DNA of 12,670 nt from a virus (lineage: Duplodnaviria; Heunggongvirae; Uroviricota; Caudoviricetes): the IMG/VR virus record IMGVR_UViG_2711768058_000009, positions 1-12,670 of that record. One strand, 5' to 3'. Position 1 is the first letter of the stretch. Each line of letters begins with the position of its first letter. Positions 1 through 12,670 of the stretch are shown here, piece after piece. The notes under the pieces were generated by a model. That model ran no database searches, had not been told where the DNA came from, and saw nothing but the letters and a program-made list of their open reading frames with translations. The translations under genes and the position numbers were made by a program.

Positions 1-1287
1 TCATCGTCTCGCTCTGTGGGGCATGTATGGGACACTTTCAGTTAACTCCTTATTGAGCAGTTCTATCTGCCCGATATTGTTATCTTTCATCCATGCTCCG
101 TAAACATTGAAAACCATTTGGGCGTTTGCATGTCCCATCTGGTTTGCGATAAAGCTTGGATTAGCTCCCGCCGATAATGCCCAGCAGGCATAAGTATGCC
201 TGGACTGATAGGCTTTCCTGTGCCGTAGTCCCGCCCGTCTCAATGCCGATGCCCATGAGTCTCTGATGGAGTCTGCTTTGTAGTGGTGGCCTGCCTGCTG
301 GCATTTTTTCACCAGTTGCGGATTAAAAACAAATGTGCATTCATGTCTTACGGTGCGTCCGAACTCCCGAAGTTTGACGTCAATTTGATATTGAGTACCA
401 AATCTTGTCATTTCAGCCTGACTTTTCAGGGTATCAACGGCTGGTTGAACAAGATGAATAACACGATCTGTTCCCGCTTCGGTTTTTGGTAGAGTGAACT
501 CACCGAGTTTTGTATAATTACGACGGATAGTCATTGTTTTAGCTTTTAAATCAATATCCTCCCAGGCAAGAGATATCAGCTCACCATGACGAATGCCTGT
601 GTATACTGCTAAAGACCACAGGTTTTTTGTTTGTTGATGGTGGCAAGCATCAATAAAACGAATGAATTCGTCATGTGTGAGCGGATCTGGTTCTGTTCTT
701 GATCTTTTTAATGGTGTAAGACCGTTAAACGGGTTTGATTCTGTGTATCCGTTGTCAGCTGCAAATTGAAACATACCTGCAATTGTCGTCATGTAGTAAT
801 TAACTGTAACTACAGATCGCCCTTTGACAGGAGTTGTCTTGCCGTTCGAGAGATTGTGATACCCGGTCAATAAATCTTTCCTGATAAAGAGTAAATCTTC
901 TTTTGTTACAGATGAAGCCAGTCGATTTTCCCCTATACGAGGGAGCATGTTTCTCACCACAGATTGATACCGATTGAGCGCGTTACCACCTATCTCGATT
1001 TTCTTCAGATCCAGCCATTTTTCGGCAAGTGCCTTAATGGTTATCTCCCTTTTCCCCAGACCGAAGTGTTTCAGATTTGGAGACTCAGGGAACTGCGCAG
1101 CGTAGTCGAAATTCCCCATTCTGATTGCAAAACAAACTGAAGTCCTGAGTTCGCCTGCAATCTTCCGGTTTTTGGCTGTGTCAGGAATACCGAGGTTTTC
1201 TCTGACACGTTTGCCGTTATAGTGAAACCATATGCGGAGTGAGCCGCCATGGTTTTCAACGCCTGTTGGGTATGATGTGTTACTCAT
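1..1287 (-). CDS. int: Tyrosine-type site-specific integrase (phage integrase family), complete, 428 aa; the attachment site would lie just left of the window
   Basis: Full ORF with stop at 1-3. C-terminal region has the R...HxxR...Y catalytic pattern (e.g. RHTYACW). RBS GGGAGG 4 nt upstream of the ATG at 1287. Sits next to an excisionase-like gene. Confidence 0.9.
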   Translation of the reverse strand: MSNTSYPTGVENHGGSLRIWFHYNGKRVRENLGIPDTAKNRKIAGELRTSVCFAIRMGNFDYAAQFPESPNLKHFGLGKREITIKALAEKWLDLKKIEIGGNALNRYQSVVRNMLPRIGENRLASSVTKEDLLFIRKDLLTGYHNLSNGKTTPVKGRSVVTVNYYMTTIAGMFQFAADNGYTESNPFNGLTPLKRSRTEPDPLTHDEFIRFIDACHHQQTKNLWSLAVYTGIRHGELISLAWEDIDLKAKTMTIRRNYTKLGEFTLPKTEAGTDRVIHLVQPAVDTLKSQAEMTRFGTQYQIDVKLREFGRTVRHECTFVFNPQLVKKCQQAGHHYKADSIRDSWASALRRAGLRHRKAYQSRHTYACWALSAGANPSFIANQMGHANAQMVFNVYGAWMKDNNIGQIELLNKELTESVPYMPHRARR

Positions 1288-1320
1288 TAAACCTCCCAGA
1301 CGTCCAGGAGCATTAACAGG

Positions 1321-1575
1321 TTAACCGGAACTTGCATTTTTGGCACCTGGTTGTTTCTGGTTTTTTATCCACCGCATAATTGCATCTATGTTGTACAGGC
1401 ATTCACTGTTTGGTTTTGGCTCTCCATCCACAGAGAAGTGGATATATTCCCTTCCTAACATCCATGATGTTCTGCGTGCTCGCTCGATAGTGCCTGATTT
1501 TAATCCTGTTGCAGCAATTAAGATGCTTTCAGCGCACCATTCACTGGGTGTTATCTGATAGATAATTTGTTGCAT
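1321..1575 (-). CDS. xis: Excisionase-like small DNA-binding protein (Xis position), about 84 aa from the ATG at 1575; the track ORF starts at a TTG at 1590
   Basis: Small ORF immediately upstream of int on the same strand. Shows the xis-like pattern (ITPSEW...RR..W, basic patches). AAGG 7 nt upstream of the ATG at 1575. Confidence 0.6.
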   Translation of the reverse strand: MQQIIYQITPSEWCAESILIAATGLKSGTIERARRTSWMLGREYIHFSVDGEPKPNSECLYNIDAIMRWIKNQKQPGAKNASSG

Positions 1576-1632
1576 AGAATTGCCTTGCAACCGCCGCCAC
1601 TATAGCTGGTGGACGGCGATCAGGGTTGAACA

Positions 1633-4077
1633 TTAAAAATCAGCTTGACTCGGGATCAGTTTTTGCCAGATTGCTGACACGTATTTTGCCTGGTAACGGG
1701 CGTCATCAAGTGCATTATGGCGCTCACCTTCGAATGGAATAGTCGTTCTGGCATCGAAATCTATCACCAGTCCCAGAGCAACCATCGTTCGTACATCACG
1801 ATCGTTGTTGTAGCGCCACGGACAGGGGATCCCCTGTCGTTCATATGAACGGCGTAAAATTACGTTGTCGAAGTTGGCTCCATTTCCCCACACCTGAACA
1901 AAAAATTCACCGGAGTTTTCGGCGATAAACTCCCTGAACTGCAACAGCGCGTCATCCAACGGGATTTCATTGGTAAGAATGGCGGATTGTGCTTCGCGTG
2001 ACTGTTTCAGCCACCACTTAATGGTGTCCCGATCAATGACTCCGCCAGCAGTTTCCAGATCGATAGTCTTACTAAATTCCGGTCCCATATCTCCGGTTTG
2101 CGGATCGAAAAATATTGCACCTATTGAGATGATCGGGGCATCAGGATTTTTTCCCATGGTTTCAAGGTCGATCATTAGATGGTCACACGTCCTGCTGGTG
2201 GATGTGATTTCGTGATGACCGTTCACCTTAATTGGGTGATCTGCCGTCTCGCCAGTTTCATTATCGCTATCGTGATGCTGATTGCCGCCAGTGTTCTCCT
2301 TGTGTGGATGTTCAGCGCCTTCCATTTCCTCCGGATCATCTTTCTGAACTTCAACCTGATTCTCTTCATCGAATGTTTCCTGGTATGTTGTGTCGTCCAT
2401 CACCGCGCCACAGTCAGGACAGTTACCGCCGCTGGTCTGACCATAGGCGGTGCAAAATTTTTCCACTTCCTGTTGCGCTACTGGTTCAAGAAGTTTCGTT
2501 TCTGGCTCGTTTTGTCGCGCATTTGGGCTGTTTTGTTCTGCATTTTGGTCGTTCTGTTCCGTTTCTTGCTGGTTCTGGTTCACAGAATCGCGGGTTTCAA
2601 TCCCCTTCACCCATTTCGGATCATTCGGGTCGCTAATCCCTTCAACAAATTCTCCACGAGAAGCAGCCAGTAACTTGTCGGCATCAACAGGATTTTGGGG
2701 CGGAATGTTTTTCCGGGCTTCATGGAGTTCTGACCGCAGTTTCTGATATTTCGCATCAACAGAATTTACCTGTGACTGAGCATCCAGCGGCTGCGTGTCC
2801 TGATGATGTTCAGTTGCATCCGGTTCCACTGTTTCAGCCGTTGCCTGTTCATCTGCCATTGCGCAAGATGGTTGCGGTTTTTTTTCATCATCCTGTTTTT
2901 CTTCTTCTGTTACACGCTGCGGCATCGGGGCAGAGGAGCGACCGCAGGCAATATCCACGATTTCCGGATCAGGGTTGGCATGATCGGTTTCAGTCAGTAC
3001 TTTGTTCAGATATTCAGTGACGTGTGCGGGGATGACCTCGATCCCAATTGGTGCTTCTTTTACGGACGCAACCACGATGGCGCGGGAATAATCCAGCCCG
3101 CCAGGCATGGTGATGAATTTGTCGCGGAAAACAGAAAAGGGCGATTTATTTTCAGCGATAATTTCCTCGATACGTTTAGCGTGTGCCGGATGAAGGTTAT
3201 AAATGTCCACGTCCATTGAACGAGCTAGTACGCCAGTGGCTACGTCGCGCGCCAGTGACGTCAGATCGTGAACGAAACCTTCGCCGCGATCAGTGAGGTT
3301 CCCGCCGCCAGCATTAGCGCCGGAAGCCGTGCGCGTGATGCGTGAAATACGATTTCCTTTCATCCACTCTTTTGTCAGCAGACCGCGATCGGTGTAGTCA
3401 GCGTTCAGGTATGATTCGATAAAAGAGGTCATCAGTCCCAGGTCTGAATTTACTGGGGCTGGGAAAACTTTGTCAGTGTCTCGCACCAGTTTGTATAAAT
3501 CCCGAATTTCCAGCGGCCCCAGTTGAGCTGCTTTATTTGAAATGGCACGGGTTGTAACCGTAGGGAGTTCTTCATCCAGTGCACTATGCAATGCCCGAAG
3601 TTCTTCCCGTGAAACGTGCGTTACCGGTTTCTCGCTGCCGTGTTGTGCAAGCCAGCGAACGGGCAGTTCCTGACCAGAAATCGGCAGGAGCATACCATCC
3701 TCAATCTCTGTCATATCTTCGCCGTTGACGTTGGTATTGTCAGTGCTGGCTGGTTTGTGCTGCGAAGAGGAAGAGGGCGCGCTAAATATCATTGTGATGC
3801 CATCTTCCCCGCCTTTTTCATATCGATTGCAGAATTCGGTATCAAACACGCCTTCCGGTGGAAGGTCATTCACAACGGGTAAATGGACACGGACGGGTTT
3901 TTTAAAGTCGTCTTCATCATAATCGTTGTCATCCATTGCAGTAATGCAGCGGGAGATAGCAACAGATAATTTTTTTGCTGTAGTCCAGTAAAAACCACCT
4001 TTAATTCCCAGGCGTTTTCTGACTTTGTCATTTTTTGCTTCGCAATATAGTGCAAATTCTTCTTTATCAGTGCTCAT
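1633..4077 (-). CDS. Large 814-aa protein: N-terminal domain of unknown function, acidic Q/N/E/D-rich linker with one CxxC, C-terminal DEDDh (DnaQ-like) 3'-5' exonuclease domain
   Basis: Long uninterrupted ORF. The three exonuclease motifs are visible in the C-terminal 190 aa: [26 protein letters not shown] 7 nt upstream of the ATG at 4077. Occupies the slot between xis and the early-left genes where lambdoid phages carry exo/bet or recE/recT. Confidence 0.85.
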
Positions 4078-4191
4078 TGATAAACCTCATAACTATTTTA
4101 AGGTTGTATGAACCCCTGCCATTTCAGGCATGCTTAATCAGTTGGTATGGCGTTAATATGGCTGGTGGGTTATCCAGCCGGTGTTTCGTTA

Positions 4192-4353
4192 TTACAGAGA
4201 TACTTTTTTTAACGGGAGGCATTCGCCGGAAAATTTTTGCTCATCTCTTGCCTGAAGGCAGGTTGCCTTACTGTCATAAATTCCGGTAATCATATTCTGT
4301 GACTCACCTGCTGTAAGAAAAACCGTCATCACCAGTGCAAATGCCGAAGTCAT
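4192..4353 (-). CDS. Small hypothetical protein, 53 aa, with a hydrophobic signal-peptide-like N-terminus (MTSAFALVMTVFLTAG...)
   Basis: Not in the ORF track (under 60 aa). The ATG at 4353 overlaps the TGA of the upstream ORF (ATGA, translational coupling). GGAGA 6 nt upstream. Confidence 0.35.
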   Translation of the reverse strand: MTSAFALVMTVFLTAGESQNMITGIYDSKATCLQARDEQKFSGECLPLKKVSL

Positions 4354-4538
4354 CGCTGTTCTCCAAAAATGCCAAGTTGAAGAAGAGCAATTCTTGAAAG
4401 TATGGAATTATCATTCAGAAGATAAGGCTCATATTTCCTCATATTAATGGCATCATCAGTGAAGTCTTTATTACTGAGCTGAATGCCAATATTAAAACAA
4501 CCTTCAGACGTATTAACGTTTGGTAATAACGTTTCCAT
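4350..4538 (-). CDS. Small hypothetical protein, 62 aa
   Basis: ORF with GAGG 8 nt upstream of the ATG at 4538. Its stop overlaps the start of the next small ORF. AT-rich composition suggests an acquired moron. Confidence 0.4.
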   Translation of the reverse strand: METLLPNVNTSEGCFNIGIQLSNKDFTDDAINMRKYEPYLLNDNSILSRIALLQLGIFGEQR

Positions 4539-4713
4539 TATCGCGTCCTCAACAATGAATTTTGTGATGCAGTGCCTGGTGCCTCCAGGTGACGTTAGCC
4601 AGTTAACAATTAACGCCGGATACAGAGCATTCCCGTTACGCCCGTAAAAGACCGCTTGTTTTAACTGTTCCGCGTGCGCTGAGCCGCATTCACCGCATCA
4701 CAAAATTCACTTT

Positions 4714-4766
4714 AAAAAAGGCGGCAGAGCAGTTACGGAGTAAAACTGGTACCGCCAAACGTCACC
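4714..4766 (-). terminator. Candidate intrinsic terminator for leftward transcription: GGCGGUA/UGCCGCC stem followed by U6
   Basis: Minus-strand RNA would read GGCGGUACC...CUGCCGCC then UUUUUU (plus-strand A6 at 4714-4719). The loop is long, so stability is uncertain. Confidence 0.35.
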
Positions 4767-4905
4767 AGAAAATGGATAACAGAGGGCGTTGCAGCGTGGT
4801 TGTCTCTTAAGCGTATGGTCAACCTGACAACCCGGTGTACTCAACGGGGAAGGAATAACCACGCCATACTTACCGCCGCGCCATTTCGCGGATTGCCACA
4901 ACCGG

Positions 4906-4967
4906 AAGCGCACGGTCGAATTAAATTTAACGACACCGTACAGTGAGACGAACTTCACCGTGCGCTT
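4906..4967. repeat. Perfect 11-bp inverted repeat (AAGCGCACGGT / ACCGTGCGCTT) around a 40-nt loop that contains the palindrome TTAAATTTAA
   Basis: Arms read directly at 4906-4916 and 4957-4967. Lies in a roughly 470-bp stretch with no convincing ORF on either strand. Confidence 0.6.
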
Positions 4968-5009
4968 TCGTGTTGTGTGCCTGCTTTTAACCACGTCAGG
5001 CGAGGTGGT

Positions 5010-5038
5010 ATCCTTAAAATCACCACTGTTTTAAGGAT
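5010..5038. promoter_or_regulatory. 10-bp perfect inverted repeat ATCCTTAAAA-N9-TTTTAAGGAT, operator-like, just upstream of the plus-strand membrane ORF
   Basis: Read directly from the sequence. The stem is AT-rich, so it is more likely a protein-binding site than a terminator. It overlaps the stop of the minus ORF and sits 11 nt before the ATG at 5049. Confidence 0.4.
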
Positions 5039-5615
5039 TCATTAAGCAATGTCGCAACCACCAATAAATCCGCTTAAGAACATGAAAATTGATTACTGGT
5101 ATAAAGCGCTTACAGTTGTTGGCGCTGCGTTGTTTGTCTTTAATGGAACGTCTTTTTTTGACAGATATCCCGTTGTTCCATTGGCTTTTTTGTCCGCCGG
5201 CATCTTTTTTATTGGTTTGGGAGAGTGGATTAACCACCCTCTCAAAGTGAGATTTATTGGTCCCGGAGTCTGGGCTCGCGGATATAACCGTTCTTCGTGC
5301 GCACTCGGTATCATCTTCGATATACTTGGTTGTTGCCTGATTGTTACAGGAGTCGTCAAGTTCTTCTGATGTAAAACCGCAAATGGGGCACGCAGAGGGA
5401 ATTTTGAAAAGCGTTTCACCGGGTTCCAGAACAAAATTTTCTGCGGTCTGATTTTGCTTCTCATATTTGTGCTCCGCATCATTGCGAGAGCACATTCTTA
5501 TTCTGAGCGCCTGTTTAAACTCACTGAAGCTGAGGGCTTCTTCGCCTTCGGCAAGGCCTTCGAAGTATTCTTCGTAAGCCTTTTCCATGATTGTGTCGAA
5601 ATCCATATCACTCAT
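5031..5615 (-). CDS. Hypothetical protein; N-terminal 80 aa acidic and helical-looking, C-terminal part low-complexity; true extent uncertain
   Basis: ORF open from the ATG at 5615 to the stop at 5031. The N-terminal part (MSDMDFDTIMEKAYEEYFEGLAEGEE...) looks protein-like. The C-terminal part is exactly codon-antisense to the membrane ORF and K/N/Q/R-rich. The ATG overlaps the stop of the upstream 51-aa ORF. Confidence 0.4.
   Translation of the reverse strand: MSDMDFDTIMEKAYEEYFEGLAEGEEALSFSEFKQALRIRMCSRNDAEHKYEKQNQTAENFVLEPGETLFKIPSACPICGFTSEELDDSCNNQATTKYIEDDTECARRTVISASPDSGTNKSHFERVVNPLSQTNKKDAGGQKSQWNNGISVKKRRSIKDKQRSANNCKRFIPVINFHVLKRIYWWLRHCLMNP
5049..5369 (+). CDS. Small integral membrane protein, 106 aa, about 3 predicted transmembrane helices; candidate superinfection-exclusion or abortive-infection moron
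   Basis: Three hydrophobic segments of about 20 aa separated by charged loops. AT-rich. Transcribed opposite to the surrounding leftward operon, as accessory exclusion genes often are. Lies entirely antisense to the minus ORF 5031..5615, so only one may be real. Confidence 0.45.
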   Translation: MSQPPINPLKNMKIDYWYKALTVVGAALFVFNGTSFFDRYPVVPLAFLSAGIFFIGLGEWINHPLKVRFIGPGVWARGYNRSSCALGIIFDILGCCLIVTGVVKFF

Positions 5616-5763
5616 CTGAGTTTCTTTCCAGCCAGCGACGCGCACCAGCTTCGGTTTTAAACGTTTTGCTTCTGGTATACGTCATGGCGGTGAATGTGCC
5701 GTCCTGGTTGGGGAACACACCGCATACCAGAGATTCGTTGTTGCCAAGATTGAGCGTATCCAT
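5608..5763 (-). CDS. Small hypothetical protein, 51 aa, first gene of the leftward early operon
   Basis: Not in the ORF track. GAGG 7 nt upstream of the ATG at 5763. Stop overlaps the next gene's start (ATGAGTGA). Sequence looks protein-like (…TFKTEAGARRWLERNSDE). Confidence 0.4.
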   Translation of the reverse strand: MDTLNLGNNESLVCGVFPNQDGTFTAMTYTRSKTFKTEAGARRWLERNSDE

Positions 5764-5938
5764 GTTGACCTCATTTCCCCTTAACGCCGGGTAGCGGAAC
5801 TTAAAAACCTGCTGCGCTGCTATTCAAAGTTATCCCGCCGTCATGTTCATACGCCTCGGGCTGGCTACTTAACCCCTGACCACTGCCGGGTAACTCGAGG
5901 TATTGCCCTGCATTCTGTGGGGCGGAGTGGGTGGTAGG

Positions 5939-5988
5939 TATATAATGTACTTTTCGTTCACTGTTGTAAAGTACTTTGAGTACATTTT
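5939..5988 (-). promoter_or_regulatory. pL-like leftward promoter (TTTACA -17- CATTAT on the minus strand) overlapped by operator-like GTAC-core motifs
   Basis: Motifs ATGTACT (5945-5951), AGTACT (5970-5975) and CTTTGAGTACAT (5974-5985). The last is the exact reverse complement of ATGTACTCAAAG found right of the repressor gene. Confidence 0.4.
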
Positions 5989-6060
5989 GTGTGTAAAAAA
6001 ATGAGATGGGATAAAGTGAAGCACAAACCCGGAGGGTGATGCTACCGGATTTATGCTGGT

Positions 6061-6480
6061 TTAAGAGGCTTTTTGTTTTTTCTTTCGTGCTAACTCTTCG
6101 TAAATTGCATTGTACTTCTGTTTTTTCTCCTCAAGAGTTTTTAAAAGTTCATCTGTCTCACTGTCAGGGAGCTCGTCCAGAAGGTCAATGATGATTTTTT
6201 GTCTTGGATTTAACTCCTGATAGAAACGTACCTGTCCACCTTCTTCAGTATCCTCTCCCAAAAGATAGGTTGGTGTTGTTCCTATGAGTGTTGCTAATTC
6301 CCTTAATTTCTCTCGGCGAGGAATTGTTTCGCCATTAAACCATTTGCTAACCGCTTTTGGTGTTAATTTCATTCGACGGGCAATTTCTGCCTGCCTTCCA
6401 TGTTGTTCATAACCAGCGTTATCACAGGCTAGCGCAAGCCTGCTGGCGAACTCTTTACGCGCTTTATCTTCATGAACCAT
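6061..6480 (-). CDS. Prophage repressor, 139 aa: N-terminal XRE-family helix-turn-helix, C-terminal coiled-coil-like region, no S24 peptidase domain (non-cleavable, RacR-like)
   Basis: HTH signature (QAEIARRMKLTPKAVSKWFNGETIP). Divergent from a Cro-like gene. No Shine-Dalgarno sequence before the ATG, and a CTGACA -17- TATCAT promoter places the transcription start at about the ATG (leaderless, like lambda cI from pRM). Confidence 0.8.
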   Translation of the reverse strand: MVHEDKARKEFASRLALACDNAGYEQHGRQAEIARRMKLTPKAVSKWFNGETIPRREKLRELATLIGTTPTYLLGEDTEEGGQVRFYQELNPRQKIIIDLLDELPDSETDELLKTLEEKKQKYNAIYEELARKKKQKAS

Positions 6481-6559
6481 AAGTTCAATGATATTCGCTC
6501 TTGGATGTACTGTCAGTTCTGTTATAGCATGTACTCAAAGTTCACATTATGAGGATGAT
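6481..6559. promoter_or_regulatory. OR-like divergent promoter/operator region between the repressor and the Cro-like gene
   Basis: ATGTACT at 6505-6511 and 6529-6535. The 12-mer ATGTACTCAAAG (6529-6540) is mirrored left of the repressor. The leaderless pRM-like promoter on the minus strand overlaps these motifs. Confidence 0.5.
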
Positions 6560-6814
6560 ATGAACCAGAAAACACTTGAAGATGTAATCAAAACTGTTCG
6601 CGTTTCTGTTGTGGCCGACGTTTGTGGTGTCAGCCAAAGAGCAATCTACAAATGGATGGATAACGGAAAATTGCCTCGCACAGAATATACCGGCGAAACA
6701 AATTACGCTGAAAAAATCGCTCTTGCATCAAACGGATTATTTTCTGCCGATGCAATTTTAACTATTGGCAGGAATAAAACTACTACGAAAAAGCTGATGG
6801 GAGTTGATTCATGA
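6560..6814 (+). CDS. Cro-like (Cro/CI-type HTH) small regulator, 84 aa from the ATG at 6560
   Basis: GAGGA 4 nt upstream of the ATG at 6560. HTH-like segment (VADVCGVSQRAIYKWMDNGKLP). Divergent from the repressor. Stop overlaps the start of the next gene (ATGA). Confidence 0.7.
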   Translation: MNQKTLEDVIKTVRVSVVADVCGVSQRAIYKWMDNGKLPRTEYTGETNYAEKIALASNGLFSADAILTIGRNKTTTKKLMGVDS

Positions 6815-7233
6815 AAATCAAGCATGAGCATATCGAATCAGTGCTGTTAGCTATGGCTGCTGCAAAAGGGCAGGCATGGGTCGCTAACGCCATTACTGAG
6901 GAATATCTGCGCCATGGGGGAAGTGAATTGCCCCTCGTACCAGGCAGGGACTGGAACAATCAGCAGAATATCTATCACCGTTGGTTGAAAGGTGAAACGA
7001 AAGCGCAAAGGGAAAAAATTCAGAAACTGATCCCTGCGGTTCTGGCAATTCTTCCGCGCGAGCTGCGTCACAGGCTAAGTATTTACGACACTCTGGAACG
7101 CCGTGCATTACTGGCGGCGCAGGAAGCGTTGAGTACGGCAATTGATGCACATGATGATGCAGTCCAGGCCGTTTACCGGAAAGCGTATTTCAGCGACGGC
7201 GGGTCATCCGGCGAGTCTGTTGTGGTGCATTGA
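6811..7233 (+). CDS. YdaT-like protein, 140 aa, in the CII position of a Rac-type immunity region
   Basis: Translationally coupled to the Cro-like gene. The order repressor / Cro-like / this gene / DUF1376 matches the Rac racR-ydaS-ydaT-ydaU arrangement. Family assignment is from memory. Confidence 0.7.
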   Translation: MKIKHEHIESVLLAMAAAKGQAWVANAITEEYLRHGGSELPLVPGRDWNNQQNIYHRWLKGETKAQREKIQKLIPAVLAILPRELRHRLSIYDTLERRALLAAQEALSTAIDAHDDAVQAVYRKAYFSDGGSSGESVVVH

Positions 7234-7319
7234 TATTTATGCCAGACCTCTGCTGATTCTGTTGATTGGGGAATCACAGAATATCACCAGAGGATGGTTC
7301 GTCACAAGATGAGGCAATT

Positions 7320-8333
7320 ATGGCCGCATTACCATACATGCAACTGTACATAGCTGATTACCTGGCTGACACCATGCATTTGTCCGCAGAGGAGCACGGC
7401 GCGTATTTGTTGCTGATGTTCAATTACTGGCAAACAGGGAAACCAATACCAAAAAACAGACTGGCAAAAATCGCCCGTCTGACTAACGAGCGATGGGCTG
7501 ATGTAGAACCATCCTTGCGGGAGTTTTTTTGCGATAACGGCGACGAATGGGTGCATCTTCGGGTTGAGGAAGATTTGGCATCAGTCAGGGAAAAATTAAC
7601 CAAAAAATCGGCCGCAGGAAAAGCATCTGTTCAGGCCAGAAGAAACAGAAAGGAAGCAGATGTTAAAACAAAACACGAGGGAAATTTAACAGGTGTTCAA
7701 ACAGATGTTGGAGTGGCGTTTGAACATTATGCCAACACAAAGGCAACTAATAAAGATACAGATCTAAAAGAATTAAACCCCACACATAACGCGCACGTGC
7801 GCGAGAGTATTCCGACCAGTGAGTTGAATGGTGCGCCGTTGCAGACAGCTGCTCCCGAATACCTGGACGGACTTAGCGAACCCATCGGAAAATTTCCGAT
7901 GACTGGTGACTGGCATCCGTCGCCGGATTTTCGACGACGGGCGGCGCTGTGGGGAGTGGCTCAGCCGGAGCCAGAATTTACACCTGCTGAACTTGCCGCC
8001 TTCCGGGACTACTGGGCAGCGGAGGGGAAAGTTTTTACGCAGGTTCAGTGGGAGCAGAAATTCGCCCGTCACGTAAATCACGTCAGGGCGCAGGTTAAAC
8101 CAGTCAGTAAGGGGGTAAACCATGCGGCAGCAGCATCTGGAACCGCATCACGGGCAGTTCAGGAAATTCGGGCAGCACGTGAACAGTGGGAGCGGGAAAA
8201 CGGATTTGTCAGCGACGGAAACGGCGTGGAAGCTGTGGGAACTCATGGGGGAGGTTTATTCAAACCGCTGGACCCGGAAGAACGGTTCCGCACCTCCGAA
8301 GCTCTGGATTGCCCAGATTGGCGCGATGACTGA
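7320..8333 (+). CDS. DUF1376 (YdaU-like) replication initiation protein, O-protein analogue, 337 aa from the ATG at 7320
   Basis: N-terminal signature LYIADYLADTMHLSAEEHGAYLLLMFNYW fits the DUF1376 pattern. GAGG 6 nt upstream of the ATG at 7320; the track ORF starts at an upstream TTG. Sits in the O position before a P-like gene. Confidence 0.75.
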   Translation: MAALPYMQLYIADYLADTMHLSAEEHGAYLLLMFNYWQTGKPIPKNRLAKIARLTNERWADVEPSLREFFCDNGDEWVHLRVEEDLASVREKLTKKSAAGKASVQARRNRKEADVKTKHEGNLTGVQTDVGVAFEHYANTKATNKDTDLKELNPTHNAHVRESIPTSELNGAPLQTAAPEYLDGLSEPIGKFPMTGDWHPSPDFRRRAALWGVAQPEPEFTPAELAAFRDYWAAEGKVFTQVQWEQKFARHVNHVRAQVKPVSKGVNHAAAASGTASRAVQEIRAAREQWERENGFVSDGNGVEAVGTHGGGLFKPLDPEERFRTSEALDCPDWRDD

Positions 8334-8787
8334 GCAGCAAATCCGGCAGGTCTGTCGGCAGTGCATGGACCGTTGCCGGGCGGGTGAAACATGGCCTCCT
8401 GACCTGGCTGAGTTTGTGGCGCTGATTTCGGAAAGCGGAGCCAATCCATTTGGTCTTACGGTGGATGCCGTGATGGAAGAGTACCGGCGCTGGCGCAATG
8501 AATCCTGGCGGTACGACGGGAGTGATAAATACCCGTGGCCACAGCCTGTGCTGTACCACATTTGCCTCGAGATGCGCACCAGAGGGATTGAACGTCAGAT
8601 GACTGAAAGTGAGCTGAAACGACTTGCAGAACGACTGTTGGCCAAATGGGCAAAGAATGTTGGTAACGGCATGAGTGTTCCGCCAGTGCGACGACAACTG
8701 GAAGGGCCAAAACACCCGCCAGGGCCAACGCCAATTGAGTTACTGAAACAGGAATATGAGCGCCGGAAAGCGGCTGGTTTTGTCTGA
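8122..8787 (+). CDS. Lambda replication protein P-like helicase loader, 221 aa
   Basis: Clear similarity to the lambda P central and C-terminal region (…YPWPQPVLYHICLEMRTRGIERQMTESELKRLAERLL… versus lambda …YPWKSNAHYWLVTNLYQNMRANALTDAELRRKAADEL…). Strong RBS AAGGGGG 6 nt upstream of the ATG at 8122. Overlaps the 3' end of the upstream gene by 212 nt in another frame; alternative starts are 8245 and 8326. Confidence 0.7.
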   Translation: MRQQHLEPHHGQFRKFGQHVNSGSGKTDLSATETAWKLWELMGEVYSNRWTRKNGSAPPKLWIAQIGAMTEQQIRQVCRQCMDRCRAGETWPPDLAEFVALISESGANPFGLTVDAVMEEYRRWRNESWRYDGSDKYPWPQPVLYHICLEMRTRGIERQMTESELKRLAERLLAKWAKNVGNGMSVPPVRRQLEGPKHPPGPTPIELLKQEYERRKAAGFV

Positions 8788-8820
8788 ATTTGAGAAATGA
8801 TTTTGTCGGAGGAAATTTTA

Positions 8821-9534
8821 ATGGAAACCGTTTTTGACGCACTGAAAGCACTGAAAAGAGCCTCTTCACAGGAGGTGTCGGCCCGCCTTGGAATCAGCCG
8901 CGAAGATGCTGTCAACGAGCTGTGGAAGCTGAAACGCCGTGGTGAAGCAGATAACAAGGGGTCGATGTGGTGGCTGACGATTGAGGCAACTGAAGCGGCC
9001 ACAAAAACCACTGCAGAGATGCTGATTAACGCGATTGAACAGCATGGTCCTCAGTCGGCTGACGAACTGGCGTTAATGTTCGGGATTACCTCCCGCCGGG
9101 CGAATTCATCACTGGCGATGGCAATCAGCAAAGGTCGTCTGATTCGCGTTAATCAGGACGGTAAATATCGTTACTGCATACCGGGCGATAATTTACCGAC
9201 AGAGCCGAAAGCTGCATCGGTAACGGAAACCGATGGTAAAGCCTTTCCTCAGCCAGCAGGTGTTGCGTTACCAGTCCGGGAAGCGGAAACACAGGAAGAA
9301 ATTAAAACTGAAAGTGTGGCGGTCACAGTGCAGTCACAGCCGTCGTTCACCAGAAAGCATCCGGATAGTCTGATTTTACCATCGCTGCATGTGGCTAACC
9401 GCGAACTGCGCCGGGCAAAAGGTCAGGTTCAGAAGTGGGAGCGAGTCTGTGCTGCGCTGCGTGAGCTGAACAAGCACCAGGATATTGTTCGACAGATTAC
9501 TGATTCATCCTGTTGTGTTACATCAGAAAAGTGA
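8821..9534 (+). CDS. Hypothetical prophage protein with two tandem winged-helix-like segments and a C-terminal coiled coil (possibly DUF1627-like), 237 aa
   Basis: GGAGG 8 nt upstream of the ATG at 8821. Internal duplication of an HTH-like segment. Family assignment is tentative. Confidence 0.7.
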
Positions 9535-9549
9535 TTGCAGGGGACGCTG

Positions 9550-10053
9550 ATGGCAAGAGTATTTACACCAGAAGAGCGGGAAAAAATTAAGGGGCAGGTT
9601 GTTGAACTCGTACGCCAGAGCGGTCGCGAGACGTTACGGCAACTGGAAGCTAAAACAGGTGCAACAAGATATCTGATGAGCGTTCTCGCCAGAGAGCTGG
9701 TTGCCAGTGGTGATGTATACAACTCTGGCTACGGGTTATTTCCGTCTGAACAGGCTCGTAAAGACTGGCAAAACGCCCGCAAAAAACTTTCAAGGGCAAA
9801 GGTGAAGAAACCGGCTGTGGTTGATCCGGACCTTATCTGGTCATTACCAGACGGAGAAATACGCCGCTACGACAGGCGCCTGAACATAATCTGTCGCGAG
9901 TGCCGGAATAGTGAAGTTATGCAGCGAGTGCTGGCGTTTTATCAGGGGGTGGGGTCAGGAGGTGGTGCTGTGAGTGAAATTAGCTATCAGGCTTCAATTG
10001 CCGCTGGCATTCGCATCAAAGGAGAGGAGCATGGAAATAAAACCAGAAGATGA
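9550..10053 (+). CDS. Hypothetical protein, 167 aa, with an N-terminal winged-helix-like segment
   Basis: AGGGGA upstream of the ATG at 9550. Tightly packed after the preceding gene. Confidence 0.65.
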   Translation: MARVFTPEEREKIKGQVVELVRQSGRETLRQLEAKTGATRYLMSVLARELVASGDVYNSGYGLFPSEQARKDWQNARKKLSRAKVKKPAVVDPDLIWSLPDGEIRRYDRRLNIICRECRNSEVMQRVLAFYQGVGSGGGAVSEISYQASIAAGIRIKGEEHGNKTRR

Positions 10054-10387
10054 GTTAAGTAATATTGTTTTATTTCCTGTAAAAGAGGATGACCCGCGTA
10101 ATCAGGTTAATTTTATTTATGAGCCATCGGAAAGACCATACTGCCATCACGCCTCTGTCCGGGTTGATGAAAAAGAGCGTCAGGTCCGGTGCAAAATATG
10201 CGGTGCGGTGGTGGAACCATTTGACTGGATGCTCTCTGTGGCGAAAAGAGAAACCAGACTGGCGGATGATGTAAAGCTATTGAGGCAGGAGGAACGGGAA
10301 AGGCGGAAAAATATAGAAAAGCTAATCCAGATTGAGCGTAACGCGAAAGCGCGGATACGCAGGGCGACAAAATCCAGAACTGAATAA
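10031..10387 (+). CDS. Hypothetical zinc-ribbon-like (C-HH…CxxC) protein with a basic coiled-coil tail, 118 aa
   Basis: GGAGAGGAG 3 nt upstream of the ATG at 10031. Overlaps the end of the upstream gene by 23 nt. Contains CHH…CKICG. Confidence 0.6.
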   Translation: MEIKPEDELSNIVLFPVKEDDPRNQVNFIYEPSERPYCHHASVRVDEKERQVRCKICGAVVEPFDWMLSVAKRETRLADDVKLLRQEERERRKNIEKLIQIERNAKARIRRATKSRTE

Positions 10388-10415
10388 TTAAATTTAGCTC
10401 TGTTAAAAATTTAAT
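10387..10415. repeat. AT-rich inverted repeat ATTAAATTT-N11-AAATTTAAT immediately after a stop codon
   Basis: Read directly from the sequence; 9-bp arms. The stem is all A/T, so it is more likely a protein-binding site than a terminator. Confidence 0.45.
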
Positions 10416-10451
10416 CCTTAACCGGAGGGATTTCTGCACTCTCAGAACATC

Positions 10452-10480
10452 AGGAGGCCGCCCGAAAGGGCGGTAGTTAA
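10452..10480 (+). promoter_or_regulatory. Structured translation-initiation region: AGGAGG, then a 6-bp GC stem with a GAAA tetraloop, then 7 nt to the ATG
   Basis: AGGAGG at 10452-10457. Stem CCGCCC/GGGCGG with GAAA loop at 10458-10473. ATG at 10481. The hairpin would shorten the effective distance between the Shine-Dalgarno sequence and the start codon. Confidence 0.45.
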
Positions 10481-10663
10481 ATGCGAAAGTTTAAAATAAT
10501 TATTGAAACGGGAATAGCCGGTGGAGATTTCGAGGATGAATTCGAAGTGGATGATGATGCGACGCCTGATGAAATACATGACGAAGCAAAAGATATTTTC
10601 TTTAACTACTGCAATTACTCATATTACGAAATAAAAGACGAAGAGGAAGAGCAAAATGGCTGA
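10481..10663 (+). CDS. Very acidic small protein, 60 aa (about 20 D/E versus 5 K/R)
   Basis: ORF MRKFKIIIETGIAGGDFEDEFEVDDDATPDE… Stop overlaps the start of the next small ORF (ATGGCTGA). Confidence 0.5.
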   Translation: MRKFKIIIETGIAGGDFEDEFEVDDDATPDEIHDEAKDIFFNYCNYSYYEIKDEEEEQNG

Positions 10664-10832
10664 TTTTGGTTCAACTAAATACAACGTCAGTTTTGAAGCA
10701 TGGCATGAACTGTTAATGGACTATGCAGAGTTACGTGGTGGCAGTGCTGCTGATGCTGAAGCATGGCGTGATGATTATGAAGCAGGAAAAACTCCGGTCG
10801 AAGCATATTGTGATGAGTGGGGCGATGAATGA
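10656..10832 (+). CDS. Acidic small protein, 58 aa
   Basis: Not in the ORF track (under 60 aa). MADFGSTKYNVSFEAWHELLMDYAELRGG… Start overlaps the upstream stop, and its own stop overlaps the ATG at 10829, so three genes are coupled. Confidence 0.45.
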   Translation: MADFGSTKYNVSFEAWHELLMDYAELRGGSAADAEAWRDDYEAGKTPVEAYCDEWGDE

Positions 10833-11344
10833 GCGAGATTAATTATCAGGAAGGGCATGAAACGGCAGGGCAGGCAAAACCAGTTGCATGGCGATATCGC
10901 TACGTGAAAAAAGACGTTACAGACTTTCAGGGGAAGCCGTGGGCTGGTGACTGGAAATATGTACCGACAAAAGAGGATTGTAACGACAGGCCGAACTATG
11001 AAATTCAGGCCTTATTCATCGGCCCGCCAGTCACGGTGACATCAGAAGGACTGGTTAAAGCCGTGCGCTTTTATGAACAGGTAAAGCGTGAGAATCCGCC
11101 AGTCGAAACAGGAGCATGGAAGGATGCTGTTGACTGGGTGCTCAGAGAGGCCTGCTGCGCTGCCATTCTGGGTAAAGCCGACAATCCACCAGCATCCGGC
11201 AATCAGGTTAGCGAATTAACAATGTGGGTTAAACGACTGGTCAGTCAACTGAAAAAAGCTCAGCCGGACTGCAAATTACCGGAGAAGGCGATGGATTACC
11301 TGAAACGAAATGGACTGATAAGCGTGGAGGATGTTTTACGATGA
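10829..11344 (+). CDS. Hypothetical prophage protein, 171 aa
   Basis: Clean ORF, translationally coupled to the upstream small genes. No family recognised with confidence. Confidence 0.7.
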   Translation: MSEINYQEGHETAGQAKPVAWRYRYVKKDVTDFQGKPWAGDWKYVPTKEDCNDRPNYEIQALFIGPPVTVTSEGLVKAVRFYEQVKRENPPVETGAWKDAVDWVLREACCAAILGKADNPPASGNQVSELTMWVKRLVSQLKKAQPDCKLPEKAMDYLKRNGLISVEDVLR

Positions 11345-11390
11345 ATATTTAGACTAAAGAGTTTGTAACGCTATGTAAGTGATTTTTTCT

Positions 11391-11424
11391 GGTTTAGATA
11401 TTTATATGTCCGGCCAAATTGAGG
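11391..11424. repeat. Copy A of an imperfect direct repeat of about 35 bp (GGTTTAG…ATATTTA…TGTCCGGCCAAA)
   Basis: Aligns with 11662-11697 (GGTTTAG…ATATTTA…TGTGCCGGACAAA). Sits upstream of the small membrane ORF. Confidence 0.4.
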
Positions 11425-11464
11425 TGTGTTTAAATGTTATTGCACATTGATTGTAGGGGGAATA

Positions 11465-11644
11465 ATGAAAAACGCATTGCAGTTTTTGTTTGTTGCGTTC
11501 TGGTTGTTCGCATCATGTATGCCCATCATCTTCACAGCAAGGTATATGGAAAAAATTGATGTTTTGATATTAATGTTTGGACATATAAATGCCCTTTTTT
11601 TAGGGGTGTTCATGGCGGTCATGTGCATTGAATACTGGCGGTAA
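11465..11644 (+). CDS. Small hydrophobic membrane peptide, 59 aa, about 2 transmembrane helices
   Basis: GGGGG 4 nt upstream of the ATG at 11465. Very AT-rich. Sequence MKNALQFLFVAFWLFASCMPIIF…LFLGVFMAVMCIEYWR. Flanked by the direct repeats. Confidence 0.45.
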   Translation: MKNALQFLFVAFWLFASCMPIIFTARYMEKIDVLILMFGHINALFLGVFMAVMCIEYWR

Positions 11645-11661
11645 ATACAGCGAACGCCATT

Positions 11662-11697
11662 GGTTTAGTTGGATATTTACTGTGCCGGACAAAAACG
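11662..11697. repeat. Copy B of the direct repeat of about 35 bp, upstream of the hok locus
   Basis: Aligned by eye to copy A at about 70% identity with one 3-4 nt indel. Confidence 0.4.
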
Positions 11698-11698
11698 G

Positions 11699-11727
11699 TT
11701 TGCGGGGAAATCTTAGTTAAGTAGAAT
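11699..11727 (+). promoter_or_regulatory. Candidate promoter for the hok mRNA (weak -35 TTTGCG, 17-nt spacer, -10 TAGAAT)
   Basis: -10 TAGAAT at 11722-11727 is a 5/6 match to consensus. Position is appropriate for a long hok leader. Confidence 0.3.
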
Positions 11728-11789
11728 AACTGCGGGTGCTTGAGGCTATCTGTCTCAGGCATGAACACCAAAAGGCAGATAGAGAAAAG

Positions 11790-11855
11790 CCCCAGTTAAC
11801 ATTACGCGTCCTGCAAGACGCTTAACATTAATCTGAGGCCATATCTATGCGACAC
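11790..11855 (-). ncRNA. Predicted Sok-like antisense RNA; extent approximate
   Basis: Minus-strand promoter TTGACC (plus 11884-11889) -16- GCTAAT (plus 11862-11867) would fire leftward across the leader ORF's RBS and ATG (11835-11849), as in canonical hok/sok loci. Confidence 0.3.
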
Positions 11856-11906
11856 ATAGAGATTAGCCTCTTACGGACCGAAAGGTCAAGGAGAAGCAGG
11901 CTATGA
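11847..11906 (+). CDS. Short mok-like leader ORF, 19 codons, ending in an ATGA overlap with the hok start
   Basis: GAGG 8 nt upstream of the ATG at 11847. Stop TGA at 11904-11906 overlaps the hok ATG at 11903-11905. No long mok frame with an ATG/GTG/TTG start was found overlapping hok. Confidence 0.35.
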   Translation: MRHIEISLLRTERSRRSRL

Positions 11907-12058
11907 AGCAGCAAAAGGCGATGTTAATCGCCCTGATCGTCATCTGTTTAACCGTCATAGTGACGGCACTGGTAACGAGGAAAGACCTCTGCGAGGTACG
12001 AATCCGAACCGGCCAGACGGAGGTCGCTGTCTTCACAGCTTACGAACCTGAGGAGTAA
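11903..12058 (+). CDS. hok: Hok/Gef-family type I toxin, 51 aa (HokD/RelF-like membrane peptide)
   Basis: Translation MKQQKAMLIALIVICLTVIVTALVTRKDLCEVRIRTGQTEVAVFTAYEPEE is a hallmark Hok-family sequence, with an upstream leader ORF and antisense promoter. Confidence 0.9.
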   Translation: MKQQKAMLIALIVICLTVIVTALVTRKDLCEVRIRTGQTEVAVFTAYEPEE

Positions 12059-12066
12059 GAGACCAG

Positions 12067-12088
12067 GCGGGGGAGAAATCTCCCGCCA
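12067..12088 (+). other. GC-rich hairpin at the 3' end of the hok mRNA (GGCGGGGGAG…TCTCCCGCC)
   Basis: Stem of about 9 bp with no following U-tract. Hok mRNAs carry 3' structures involved in fold-back inhibition. Confidence 0.4.
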
Positions 12089-12225
12089 CCTCTGATGTGT
12101 CAGGCATCCTCAACGCACCCGCGCTTAACCCGCTTCGTCGGGTTTTGTTTTTTCCTGGCATTCTGGTTTACAATTCGCACGTCAGCCTGAACAACTGGCA
12201 CCTGCTGCGCCAGCAGAGAAAACCG

Positions 12226-12504
12226 ATGGCGCACGATACCAAGTTACACAATTCTGATAATTCAGCTGTCTTTGCCAGCAGGCACGGGCGGCGTTCCCGC
12301 ACATTCAAATCTGACTGGTTCCAGCATGACCCATGCACAGAAGAACAGGCCGAATGGTTAATTCAGTGCTACCGCAGGCGCGGATACGAGTTTCAGAAAG
12401 ACCTCAGCCTCGACCGACTGCACTGGATAATCTCTGTGAGGCTCCCTTACTCCGAGCGCCCACCGCGTCCATCCCGCACATTCCAGCAACGTATCTGGAG
12501 GTAA
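12226..12504 (+). CDS. Hypothetical protein, 92 aa from the ATG at 12226 (track ORF starts at a GTG at 12097); weak call
   Basis: Its stop TAA at 12502-12504 sits between a GGAGG and the GTG start of the next ORF, suggesting coupling. Composition is Arg/Pro-rich and the RBS is weak. Confidence 0.3.
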   Translation: MAHDTKLHNSDNSAVFASRHGRRSRTFKSDWFQHDPCTEEQAEWLIQCYRRRGYEFQKDLSLDRLHWIISVRLPYSERPPRPSRTFQQRIWR

Positions 12505-12505
12505 C

Positions 12506-12670
12506 GTGCGGGTATTACTTCGACCTGTTCTTGTGCCAGAACTCGGGCTGGTGATCGTTAAGCCGGGCCATGAATCCATGCCGGTATTCCAAAATACCCG
12601 GGTACTGGTGGAGCCGGAACCGAAAAGCATGCGTAATCTGCCGTCCGGGGTCGTTCCTGCCGTTCGCCAG
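12506..12670 (+). CDS. 5' part of a hypothetical protein that continues beyond the window (MRVLLRPVLVPELGLVIVKPGHESMPVFQ…)
   Basis: GGAGG 4 nt upstream of the GTG at 12506. Frame is open for 55 codons to the window edge. The frame is also open upstream, so the start is uncertain. Confidence 0.4.
   Translation, partial: MRVLLRPVLVPELGLVIVKPGHESMPVFQNTRVLVEPEPKSMRNLPSGVVPAVRQ

Follow-up and report, generated by a model that had tools for sequence, protein, structure and literature searches.

The stretch of DNA analyzed here, which we refer to as the window, comprises 12,670 nucleotides (IMG/VR virus record IMGVR_UViG_2711768058_000009, positions 1 to 12,670) and corresponds to the left arm of a lambdoid prophage together with its replication region. 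Our subject is an exonuclease gene on the minus strand at 1633-4077, an open reading frame (ORF) of 814 codons with an ATG start and a GAGG Shine-Dalgarno sequence 7 nt upstream. Its product joins the N-terminal domain and linker of RecE to an exonuclease domain related to T4 DexA (Pfam PF06630 plus PF16473). We use D-type for genes in which the RecE N-domain ends in a DexA-like domain and R-type for those in which it ends in the RecE nuclease; the gene in the window is thus an 814-residue RecE-N::DexA-like protein, or D-type ExoVIII. An earlier, sequence-only reading of this DNA had drawn attention to the gene as an exonuclease standing alone in the recombination slot of a prophage.

Architecture of the 814-residue protein

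The C-terminal domain (residues 633-814; 1636-2181, minus strand) is, from its sequence, a DEDDh 3'-5' exonuclease of the DexA/Rv2179c type with a complete predicted catalytic pentad. PF16473 was matched over residues 633-804 (E = 6.9e-66, 221.7 bits against a cut-off of 27), covering model positions 2-177 of 177. The three motifs that the sequence-only reading had picked out were located in the expected order: the Exo I motif DLETMG at residues 637-642 (2152-2169, minus strand; D637 and E639), the Exo II motif NGANFD at 732-737 (1867-1884, minus strand; D737) and the Exo III motif HNALDDA at 787-793 (1699-1719, minus strand; H787 and D792). The pentad D637/E639/D737/H787/D792 aligns with D7/E9/D119/H186/D191 of T4 DexA, whose structures, 8KEL and 8KEN, are the only solved sequence relatives in the PDB, and 26 of 30 fused relatives retain it in full. 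An RNase H-like exonuclease fold was predicted for this domain, and a Foldseek search with the C-domain of the AlphaFold model placed DexA first (8kel, E = 9e-8), followed by RNase T and Orn. The sequence-only reading had also suggested that the N-terminal part and linker may resemble those of RecE, which would imply a swap of the nuclease domain, and this is borne out by the alignments that follow.

Residue M635 aligns with the start methionine of stand-alone homologues. Internal initiation at this position was considered and is not supported, the nearest AGGA lying approximately 14 nt upstream, at poor spacing. One such stand-alone DexA-like homologue, annotated as a '3'-5' exoribonuclease', is found in the P2-like Klebsiella phage ST16-OXA48phi5.4 (L007:4286-4852); it has DLINVS in place of the DxE motif and lacks both the Exo II Asp and the Exo III His, and is probably catalytically dead.

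The remainder of the protein is derived from RecE. In a BLASTP comparison with E. coli K-12 RecE, residues 58-618 match RecE residues 50-592 at 75% identity, with no similarity beyond, and the match ends at the start of the RecE nuclease domain (approximately residue 600). Profile searches gave the same picture: Pfam Exonuc_VIII (PF06630) was matched at residues 57-189 (E = 2e-24), and the NCBIfam RecE equivalog NF007259 aligned with residues 1-614 over model positions 1-600 of 877, at 1,071 bits, below its cut-off of 1,269. There was no Pfam match to a PD-(D/E)XK domain in the 814-residue protein. The junction (...ETGE.ADP.I.V followed by a 21-residue stretch) is the same in a second lineage, represented by the D-type protein P0122; past the junction, the DNA of the 3' end shows no usable homology to the Rac recE-recT-xis region. 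The first 385 residues (2923-4077, minus strand) form a folded N-domain, common to RecE, which AlphaFold predicts with confidence and for which no structural relative was found in the PDB or in BFVD, a collection of predicted viral structures. In a 2023 review the RecE N-terminal part, of about 600 residues, is listed as being of unknown function (PMC11611040).

Between the two folded parts lies an acidic, Q/N-rich disordered linker, also common to RecE (residues 386-632; 2182-2922, minus strand). It contains 56 D+E and 21 K+R, a net charge of -35, together with 41 Q+N, and its predicted local distance difference test score is below 50 except in short helices at 438-456, 466-473 and 496-505. 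In the full-length model, the largely disordered part spans residues 388-632. One motif of 21 residues within the linker, at 469-489 (2611-2673, minus strand), is set apart from the remainder by its conservation, which extends to at least 50% of 42 diverse sequences of the D and R types; the motif is also present in RecE and, on this conservation, is a candidate partner-binding motif. The lone CxxC that the sequence-only reading had noted in an acidic Q/N/E/D-rich linker is the NCPDCG at residues 552-557. RecE has CNACG...CPDCG where this protein has CTAYG...CPDCG, and, as judged from this comparison, the lone CxxC is the apparent remnant of a CxxC...CxxC pair in RecE, leaving a degenerate zinc ribbon (C542...C553-x-x-C556; 2410-2454, minus strand). 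Conservation within the family does not extend to the zinc-ribbon region.

Operon slot and prophage setting

The exonuclease gene is the final gene of an early-left (pL-type) operon whose order is repressor, DicF, dicB, a ydfD-like gene, exonuclease, xis and int. The excisionase gene (DUF1233; 1321-1590, minus strand) begins 42 nt past the exonuclease stop codon, with no recT between, and is followed by the tyrosine integrase gene (1-1287, minus strand), which marks the prophage end. The absence of an annealase partner and of a PD-(D/E)XK gene, which the sequence-only reading had pointed out, holds on closer search: Pfam and PHROGs scans, covering most of the longer ORFs, identified no annealase, PD-(D/E)XK nuclease or Gam among the scanned window ORFs, and a six-frame phmmer search of the window gave no match to RecT, Bet, lambda Exo or Gam. 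Annealases of the Erf type were covered by the Pfam and PHROGs scans only.

Upstream of the exonuclease gene, all on the minus strand, are a DUF1482/YdfD-like gene (4192-4353), dicB (4350-4538), a complete DicF small RNA (4719-4770; Rfam RF00039, 70.5 bits), a 204-residue ORF (5031-5645; phrog_35040, E = 2e-139), a DUF1391 gene (5608-5763) and a helix-turn-helix repressor gene (6061-6480). The 204-residue ORF overlaps the DUF1391 gene, contains a CxxC...C stretch and has a 212-residue counterpart at the same position in another locus (L005); it gave no Pfam or PADLOC match. Past the repressor, the rightward genes are cro-like, YdaT/cII-like, O-like and P-like, followed by a hok/sok type I toxin-antitoxin module (11734-11905 and 11903-12058, plus strand). 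The sok RNA of this module (RF01794, 106.7 bits) overlaps the start of a 51-residue Hok-like ORF. As a complete DicF and the dicB-ydfD pair lie upstream, the window couples a dicBF operon resembling that of Qin to an immunity and replication region resembling that of Rac (YdaS/YdaT-type). A scan for an independent promoter or terminator gave hits no more numerous than in shuffled sequence.

The order dicB, ydfD-like, exonuclease, xis, int is repeated in an isolated phage and in prophages that occupy different attachment sites in E. coli. Loci in which xis follows the exonuclease gene without recT include L004, L005, L006, L096 and L097 as well as 15 D-type loci from other genera. In all 8 D-type loci that were inspected, xis and int directly follow the exonuclease gene. 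In Rac, canonical RecE occupies the same slot, at the end of the early-left operon by xis-int, and in a Klebsiella phage the slot holds a DUF1482 gene, then RecE, then recT. The pseudogene ydfE of the K-12 Qin prophage (L003:5079-5999) was considered as a remnant of the 814-residue gene and rejected, as BLASTP shows no similarity; since ydfE occupies the same position after dicB-ydfD and yet is unrelated, the slot is variable.

Two further observations concern the setting of the gene elsewhere. In place of dicB-ydfD, a gene for a small Rrf2-family helix-turn-helix protein of 113-124 residues that begins MEFGMKRV precedes the D-type gene in Citrobacter, Kluyvera, Phytobacter and related genera (L025:6459-6800, L047:6438-6788 and equivalents in L034, L041, L064 and L036). 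E. coli LZHX12 (NZ_CP155555, L001) carries a copy 100% identical to the exonuclease of the window and annotated 'exonuclease', in a prophage that has no equivalent of window positions 4078-6810 (ydfD, dicB, DicF, repressor and cro), so that the exonuclease gene abuts a divergent ydaT-family gene. This prophage has lost its immunity region and its exonuclease copy is intact; hence, the gene has been retained in a clearly defective prophage.

Cassette exchange, abundance and selection

An exhaustive HMMER search with residues 1-400 returned only 180 cluster representatives among 1.84 billion. For the 82 representatives of at least 450 residues, 13 were D-type, 19 were R-type, 2 were fused to RecT and in the rest Pfam recognized no domain at the C-terminus. 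When species-representative genomes were scanned, 55 loci were obtained; those named to genus were all from Enterobacteriaceae except for one metagenome bin labelled Veillonella parvula (L022), and a second bin was labelled only 'Proteobacteria' (L014). The two types differ in their partner. A recT-like ORF starts at or overlaps the stop codon in 32 of 34 R-type genes, the other 2 of which reach the contig end, whereas none of 16 D-type genes has a recT-like ORF within 8 kb. This split of 32/0 versus 0/16 gives, at face value, a Fisher p of approximately 4e-13 by our own arithmetic, the loci not being independent. A search for Bet, Gam, lambda Exo and RecT gave no match in 20 D-type loci or in the window.

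In a neighbour-joining tree of the N-domain, D-type and R-type sequences are interleaved. The N-domain of Rac RecE is 99% identical to that of the D-type protein P0122, and another D/R pair is 81% identical. The interleaved tree, these two pairs and the shared junction in P0122 indicate that nuclease cassettes have been repeatedly exchanged on one platform, as we will call the N-domain and linker; the recT split, taken with the tree, indicates that recT travels with the RecE nuclease and not with the platform.

Other C-terminal modules were also observed on the same N-domain. In two proteins, P0121 (703 residues; PF06630 + PF03837) and one from Citrobacter braakii (L019:7347-8771, 474 residues), it is fused directly to RecT with no nuclease domain. 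A third C-terminal module, of approximately 160 residues with the motif KKSLTDAxKKALSxLGFSADIxLGLYD, is carried on the N-domain core by P0168, P0181, P0184, P0208, P0246, P0129 and P0147 and is found in Pectobacterium phage ZF40 (JQ177065.1 3044-3532). Phages of Pseudomonas and Vibrio also encode it as a stand-alone protein, under the annotation 'DNA repair protein' or 'exonuclease'. Its best Pfam match, Rad52_Rad22 (E = 0.003-0.03), is below threshold, its label in PHROGs is 'exonuclease' and a PDB profile search returned nothing; this module may be an annealase misannotated as a nuclease.

An RNA substrate has to be weighed at this point. An RNA-directed 3'-5' exoribonuclease, like Rv2179c of Mycobacterium tuberculosis, might, for example, mature or turn over DicF or the early-left RNA. 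The Pfam family is named for an exoribonuclease and the NCBI name is '3'-5' exoribonuclease', RNase T and oligoribonuclease are among the structural neighbours, and the operon also encodes DicF, 640 nt upstream of the gene. Against this, no dicB-like ORF was present among the listed upstream ORFs of D-type loci in Citrobacter, Enterobacter, Kluyvera and Phytobacter, where dicF was not searched for and the scanned upstream ORFs were Rrf2-like or without a Pfam match. A role specific to DicF cannot therefore be general. Moreover, the closest tested homologues are DNases and all other cassettes on the N-domain act on DNA, and we regard an RNA-directed role as quite unlikely.

The D-type form is not rare. 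DNA of the C-terminal domain (568 nt, at least 80% coverage) was found in 4,043 of 5,426 complete E. coli genomes (75%), at 8,030 places and up to 7 per genome, while DNA of the Rac RecE nuclease domain was found in 1,730 of the same genomes. The rarity that the sequence-only reading had implied was thus mistaken, the DexA-type form being the commonest one in E. coli. The full-length gene, at a coverage of at least 80%, is present in 1,244 genomes. The PF06630 + PF16473 architecture accounts for more than 100 clusters at 90% identity (among the best 120 of 8,000 scored matches), and the clusters among the matches listed are named only 'exonuclease' or '3'-5' exoribonuclease'.

The ratio of nonsynonymous to synonymous substitution rates (dN/dS) against four relatives was lowest in the exonuclease domain (0.10-0.13), higher in the N-domain (0.16-0.36) and highest in the linker (0.38-0.65). 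The five copies compared (812-814 residues) are all intact, none having an internal stop. Purifying selection on the exonuclease domain is strong. These data bear on the view that the gene is a decayed or defective RecE remnant without a function of its own. A 2009 study of O157 Sakai rated an 'ExoVIII-type' system as intact in one of seven prophages and disrupted in six (PMC2669165), which would favour decay to the extent that those prophages are D-type. However, the intact copies, the full-length genes in 1,244 genomes, dN/dS values of 0.1 (exonuclease) and 0.16-0.36 (N-domain), the conservation of the pentad across genera and an in-frame junction shared with a second lineage all argue against it. 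As dN/dS is low and the pentad is retained in most fused relatives, the gene appears functional rather than a decaying RecE; the remnant view is already contradicted by the selection and conservation data and is hardly credible.

Retention of an intact gene in so many genomes also invites the suggestion, made in the sequence-only reading, that the protein is a defence effector. Such a protein would be a defence or superinfection-exclusion nuclease similar to EcD ('HREX') that digests the modified-cytosine DNA of phages such as the T-even group and spares host DNA. The precedent is a 2025 study in which the stand-alone E. coli protein EcD digested T4 DNA containing 5-hydroxymethylcytosine (5hmC) and protected against T4 when plasmid-borne (PMC12153337). 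We retrieved an EcD-like protein of 189 residues from IMG/VR contigs by means of the forward cloning primer of that study; the 3' end of its gene is one base off the printed reverse primer, and its residue 78 is Ala, as in that study. This EcD-like protein is 40% identical to the C-domain of the window protein over 182 residues; within the phage collection, P2-like Klebsiella phages encode its closest relatives, at 46% identity. Also in favour of defence are the presence of the domain in 75% of E. coli genomes, including the defective LZHX12 prophage that lacks the immunity region, and the finding that DicB, from the same operon, protects against phage when expressed (PMC6832061).

Several observations point the other way. 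Under sequence alignment, the window protein fails two of the three sequence criteria of the EcD study (PMC12153337) and so, by the standards of that study, is not a variant of the EcD kind. DexA residues W152 and D169 align with N757 and V771, in a loop alignment that is weak and has a Trp, W754, 3 residues upstream; a Trp at position 757 is present in many fused relatives. The 'tetramer' residue D90, the loss of which would go with a dimer-only state, is retained as D709, where the EcD-like protein has A78. Within its repressed early-left operon the gene follows the toxic dicB, and the scan for promoters did no better than shuffled sequence; there is no PADLOC match, and a defence role leaves unexplained both the 630-residue RecE platform and the strict alternation with the RecE nuclease and RecT. 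A defence effector has one published precedent, at 40% identity, and we consider this role unlikely.

A related suggestion is that the protein is an anti-defence effector that destroys the multicopy single-stranded DNA (msDNA) of retrons, other single-stranded DNA made by reverse transcriptases or linear oligonucleotide signals. Canonical RecE degrades retron msDNA in vivo (bioRxiv 10.1101/2020.06.22.160242), so that proteins of the ExoVIII family do encounter the DNA of defence systems, and a 3'-5' exonuclease acting on single-stranded DNA could in principle degrade such DNA too. But degradation of msDNA triggers the retron toxin and does not disarm it (bioRxiv 10.1101/2020.06.22.160242), the loci show no link to any defence system and our literature searches found no precedent in the family. 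An anti-defence role is therefore very unlikely, and the degradation of nucleotide immune signals, which the sequence-only reading had listed, found no support.

Proposed role and comparison with known systems

Our results suggest, with a probability that we would put at about 0.5, that the gene encodes a single-polypeptide enzyme that degrades DNA 3' ends and is made from the early-left operon on induction; the rest of the probability is shared by the rivals weighed above and by explanations of some other kind. Of the roles that had been put forward from the sequence, that of a non-canonical recombination nuclease, widened to DNA ends, agrees best with the context. The N-domain and linker would bring the enzyme to where RecE goes. 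The likeliest destination is a DNA end, or a host or phage factor located there, and recruitment may occur through a conserved ten-residue motif in the linker. The C-terminal domain would then shorten free 3' ends of DNA through two-metal catalysis, with D637, E639, D737 and D792 as the predicted catalytic residues and H787 as the putative general base. The enzyme would act as a single protein without a dedicated annealase, and its purpose may be the trimming of ends for recombination or repair or the removal of 3' tails. As there is no annealase partner, this is not a two-component exonuclease-annealase recombinase of the RecET/Red kind. As the gene is the last of the early-left operon, production would be expected on induction or infection and not in the repressed lysogen. 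DNA is the probable substrate because the closest tested homologues, the EcD-like protein and T4 DexA, are DNases and because all other cassettes on the platform are DNA-recombination modules, the other N-domain partners being the RecE nuclease with RecT, a directly fused RecT and a putative Rad52-like module. We infer, in other words, the preference for DNA over RNA, the timing of expression, the targeting by the N-domain and the biological purpose, whereas the identity of the domains, the catalytic residues, the fold, the place in the operon, the lack of an annealase, the purifying selection and the repeated cassette exchange are shown by the analyses above.

A number of points weigh against this proposal. 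Literature searches found no biochemical or genetic data on the 814-residue protein or its fused relatives. Pfam and NCBI label the PF16473 domain an exoribonuclease. DEDDh enzymes often take both RNA and DNA. Targeting by the N-domain is conjecture, since the RecE N-terminal part is listed without a function (PMC11611040) and the domain has no structural relative. Expression on induction only is something that we infer from gene order, and the promoter scan was neutral as to an internal promoter.

A broader proposal, which we advance tentatively and hold to be rather doubtful, is that the RecE N-domain and linker constitute a modular 'DNA-end platform' with interchangeable cassettes. These cassettes would comprise a 5'-3' nuclease with RecT, the DEDDh domain alone, a fused RecT and possibly a Rad52-like annealase, with the DEDDh form providing an annealase-independent 3'-5' resection route that gives 5' overhangs. 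A parallel to such a route would be the joining of linear DNA that E. coli carries out in vivo with XthA. RecET is a workhorse of recombineering. If the proposal is true, such a route could be exploited for recombineering and would reveal the role of the RecE N-terminus. The fused protein is also a candidate tool enzyme, as a targeted 3'-5' exonuclease. The Rac RecE and P0122 proteins, with N-domains 99% identical, are natural chimeras that make the question of the RecE N-terminus experimentally tractable.

As the gene family is abundant and generically annotated, its sequence cannot be called new. Our literature searches yielded no study of the fused protein. What appears to be undescribed is that the DexA-type form is the majority form of the RecE family, of opposite polarity, without an annealase, repeatedly exchanged and borne on a platform without a structural relative. 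In E. coli, the platform is more often joined to this opposite-polarity nuclease without an annealase, and both this prevalence and the strict partner rule would be surprising to a specialist in phage recombination. The finding corrects the common reading of such genes in the prophages of pathogenic E. coli as 'defective ExoVIII' and bears on the recombination of the many lambdoid prophages of enterohaemorrhagic E. coli.

Comparison with known systems places the 814-residue protein between several of them. It shares with Rac RecE the N-domain, the acidic linker, PF06630 and the operon slot, but the PD-(D/E)XK 5'-3' nuclease has been swapped for a DEDDh 3'-5' exonuclease, there is no downstream recT and the score falls below the NF007259 cut-off. 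It occupies the same genomic slot as the exonuclease-annealase pairs (lambda Exo/Bet and RecE/RecT) and shares the RecE platform, but belongs to a nuclease family of opposite polarity and the annealase is absent. With T4 DexA it has in common the Pfam family, the fold and the five catalytic residues, at approximately 27% identity; DexA is a stand-alone protein of 227 residues from a virulent phage, and its loops and proposed 5hmC-recognition residues, W152 and D169, are unmatched in the 814-residue protein. The closest experimentally tested relative of the C-domain is EcD, which is a stand-alone protein of 189 residues that lacks an equivalent of DexA D90 and keeps the Trp, whereas in the 814-residue protein the Asp is retained (D709), Asn takes the place of the Trp and a further 632 residues precede the domain.

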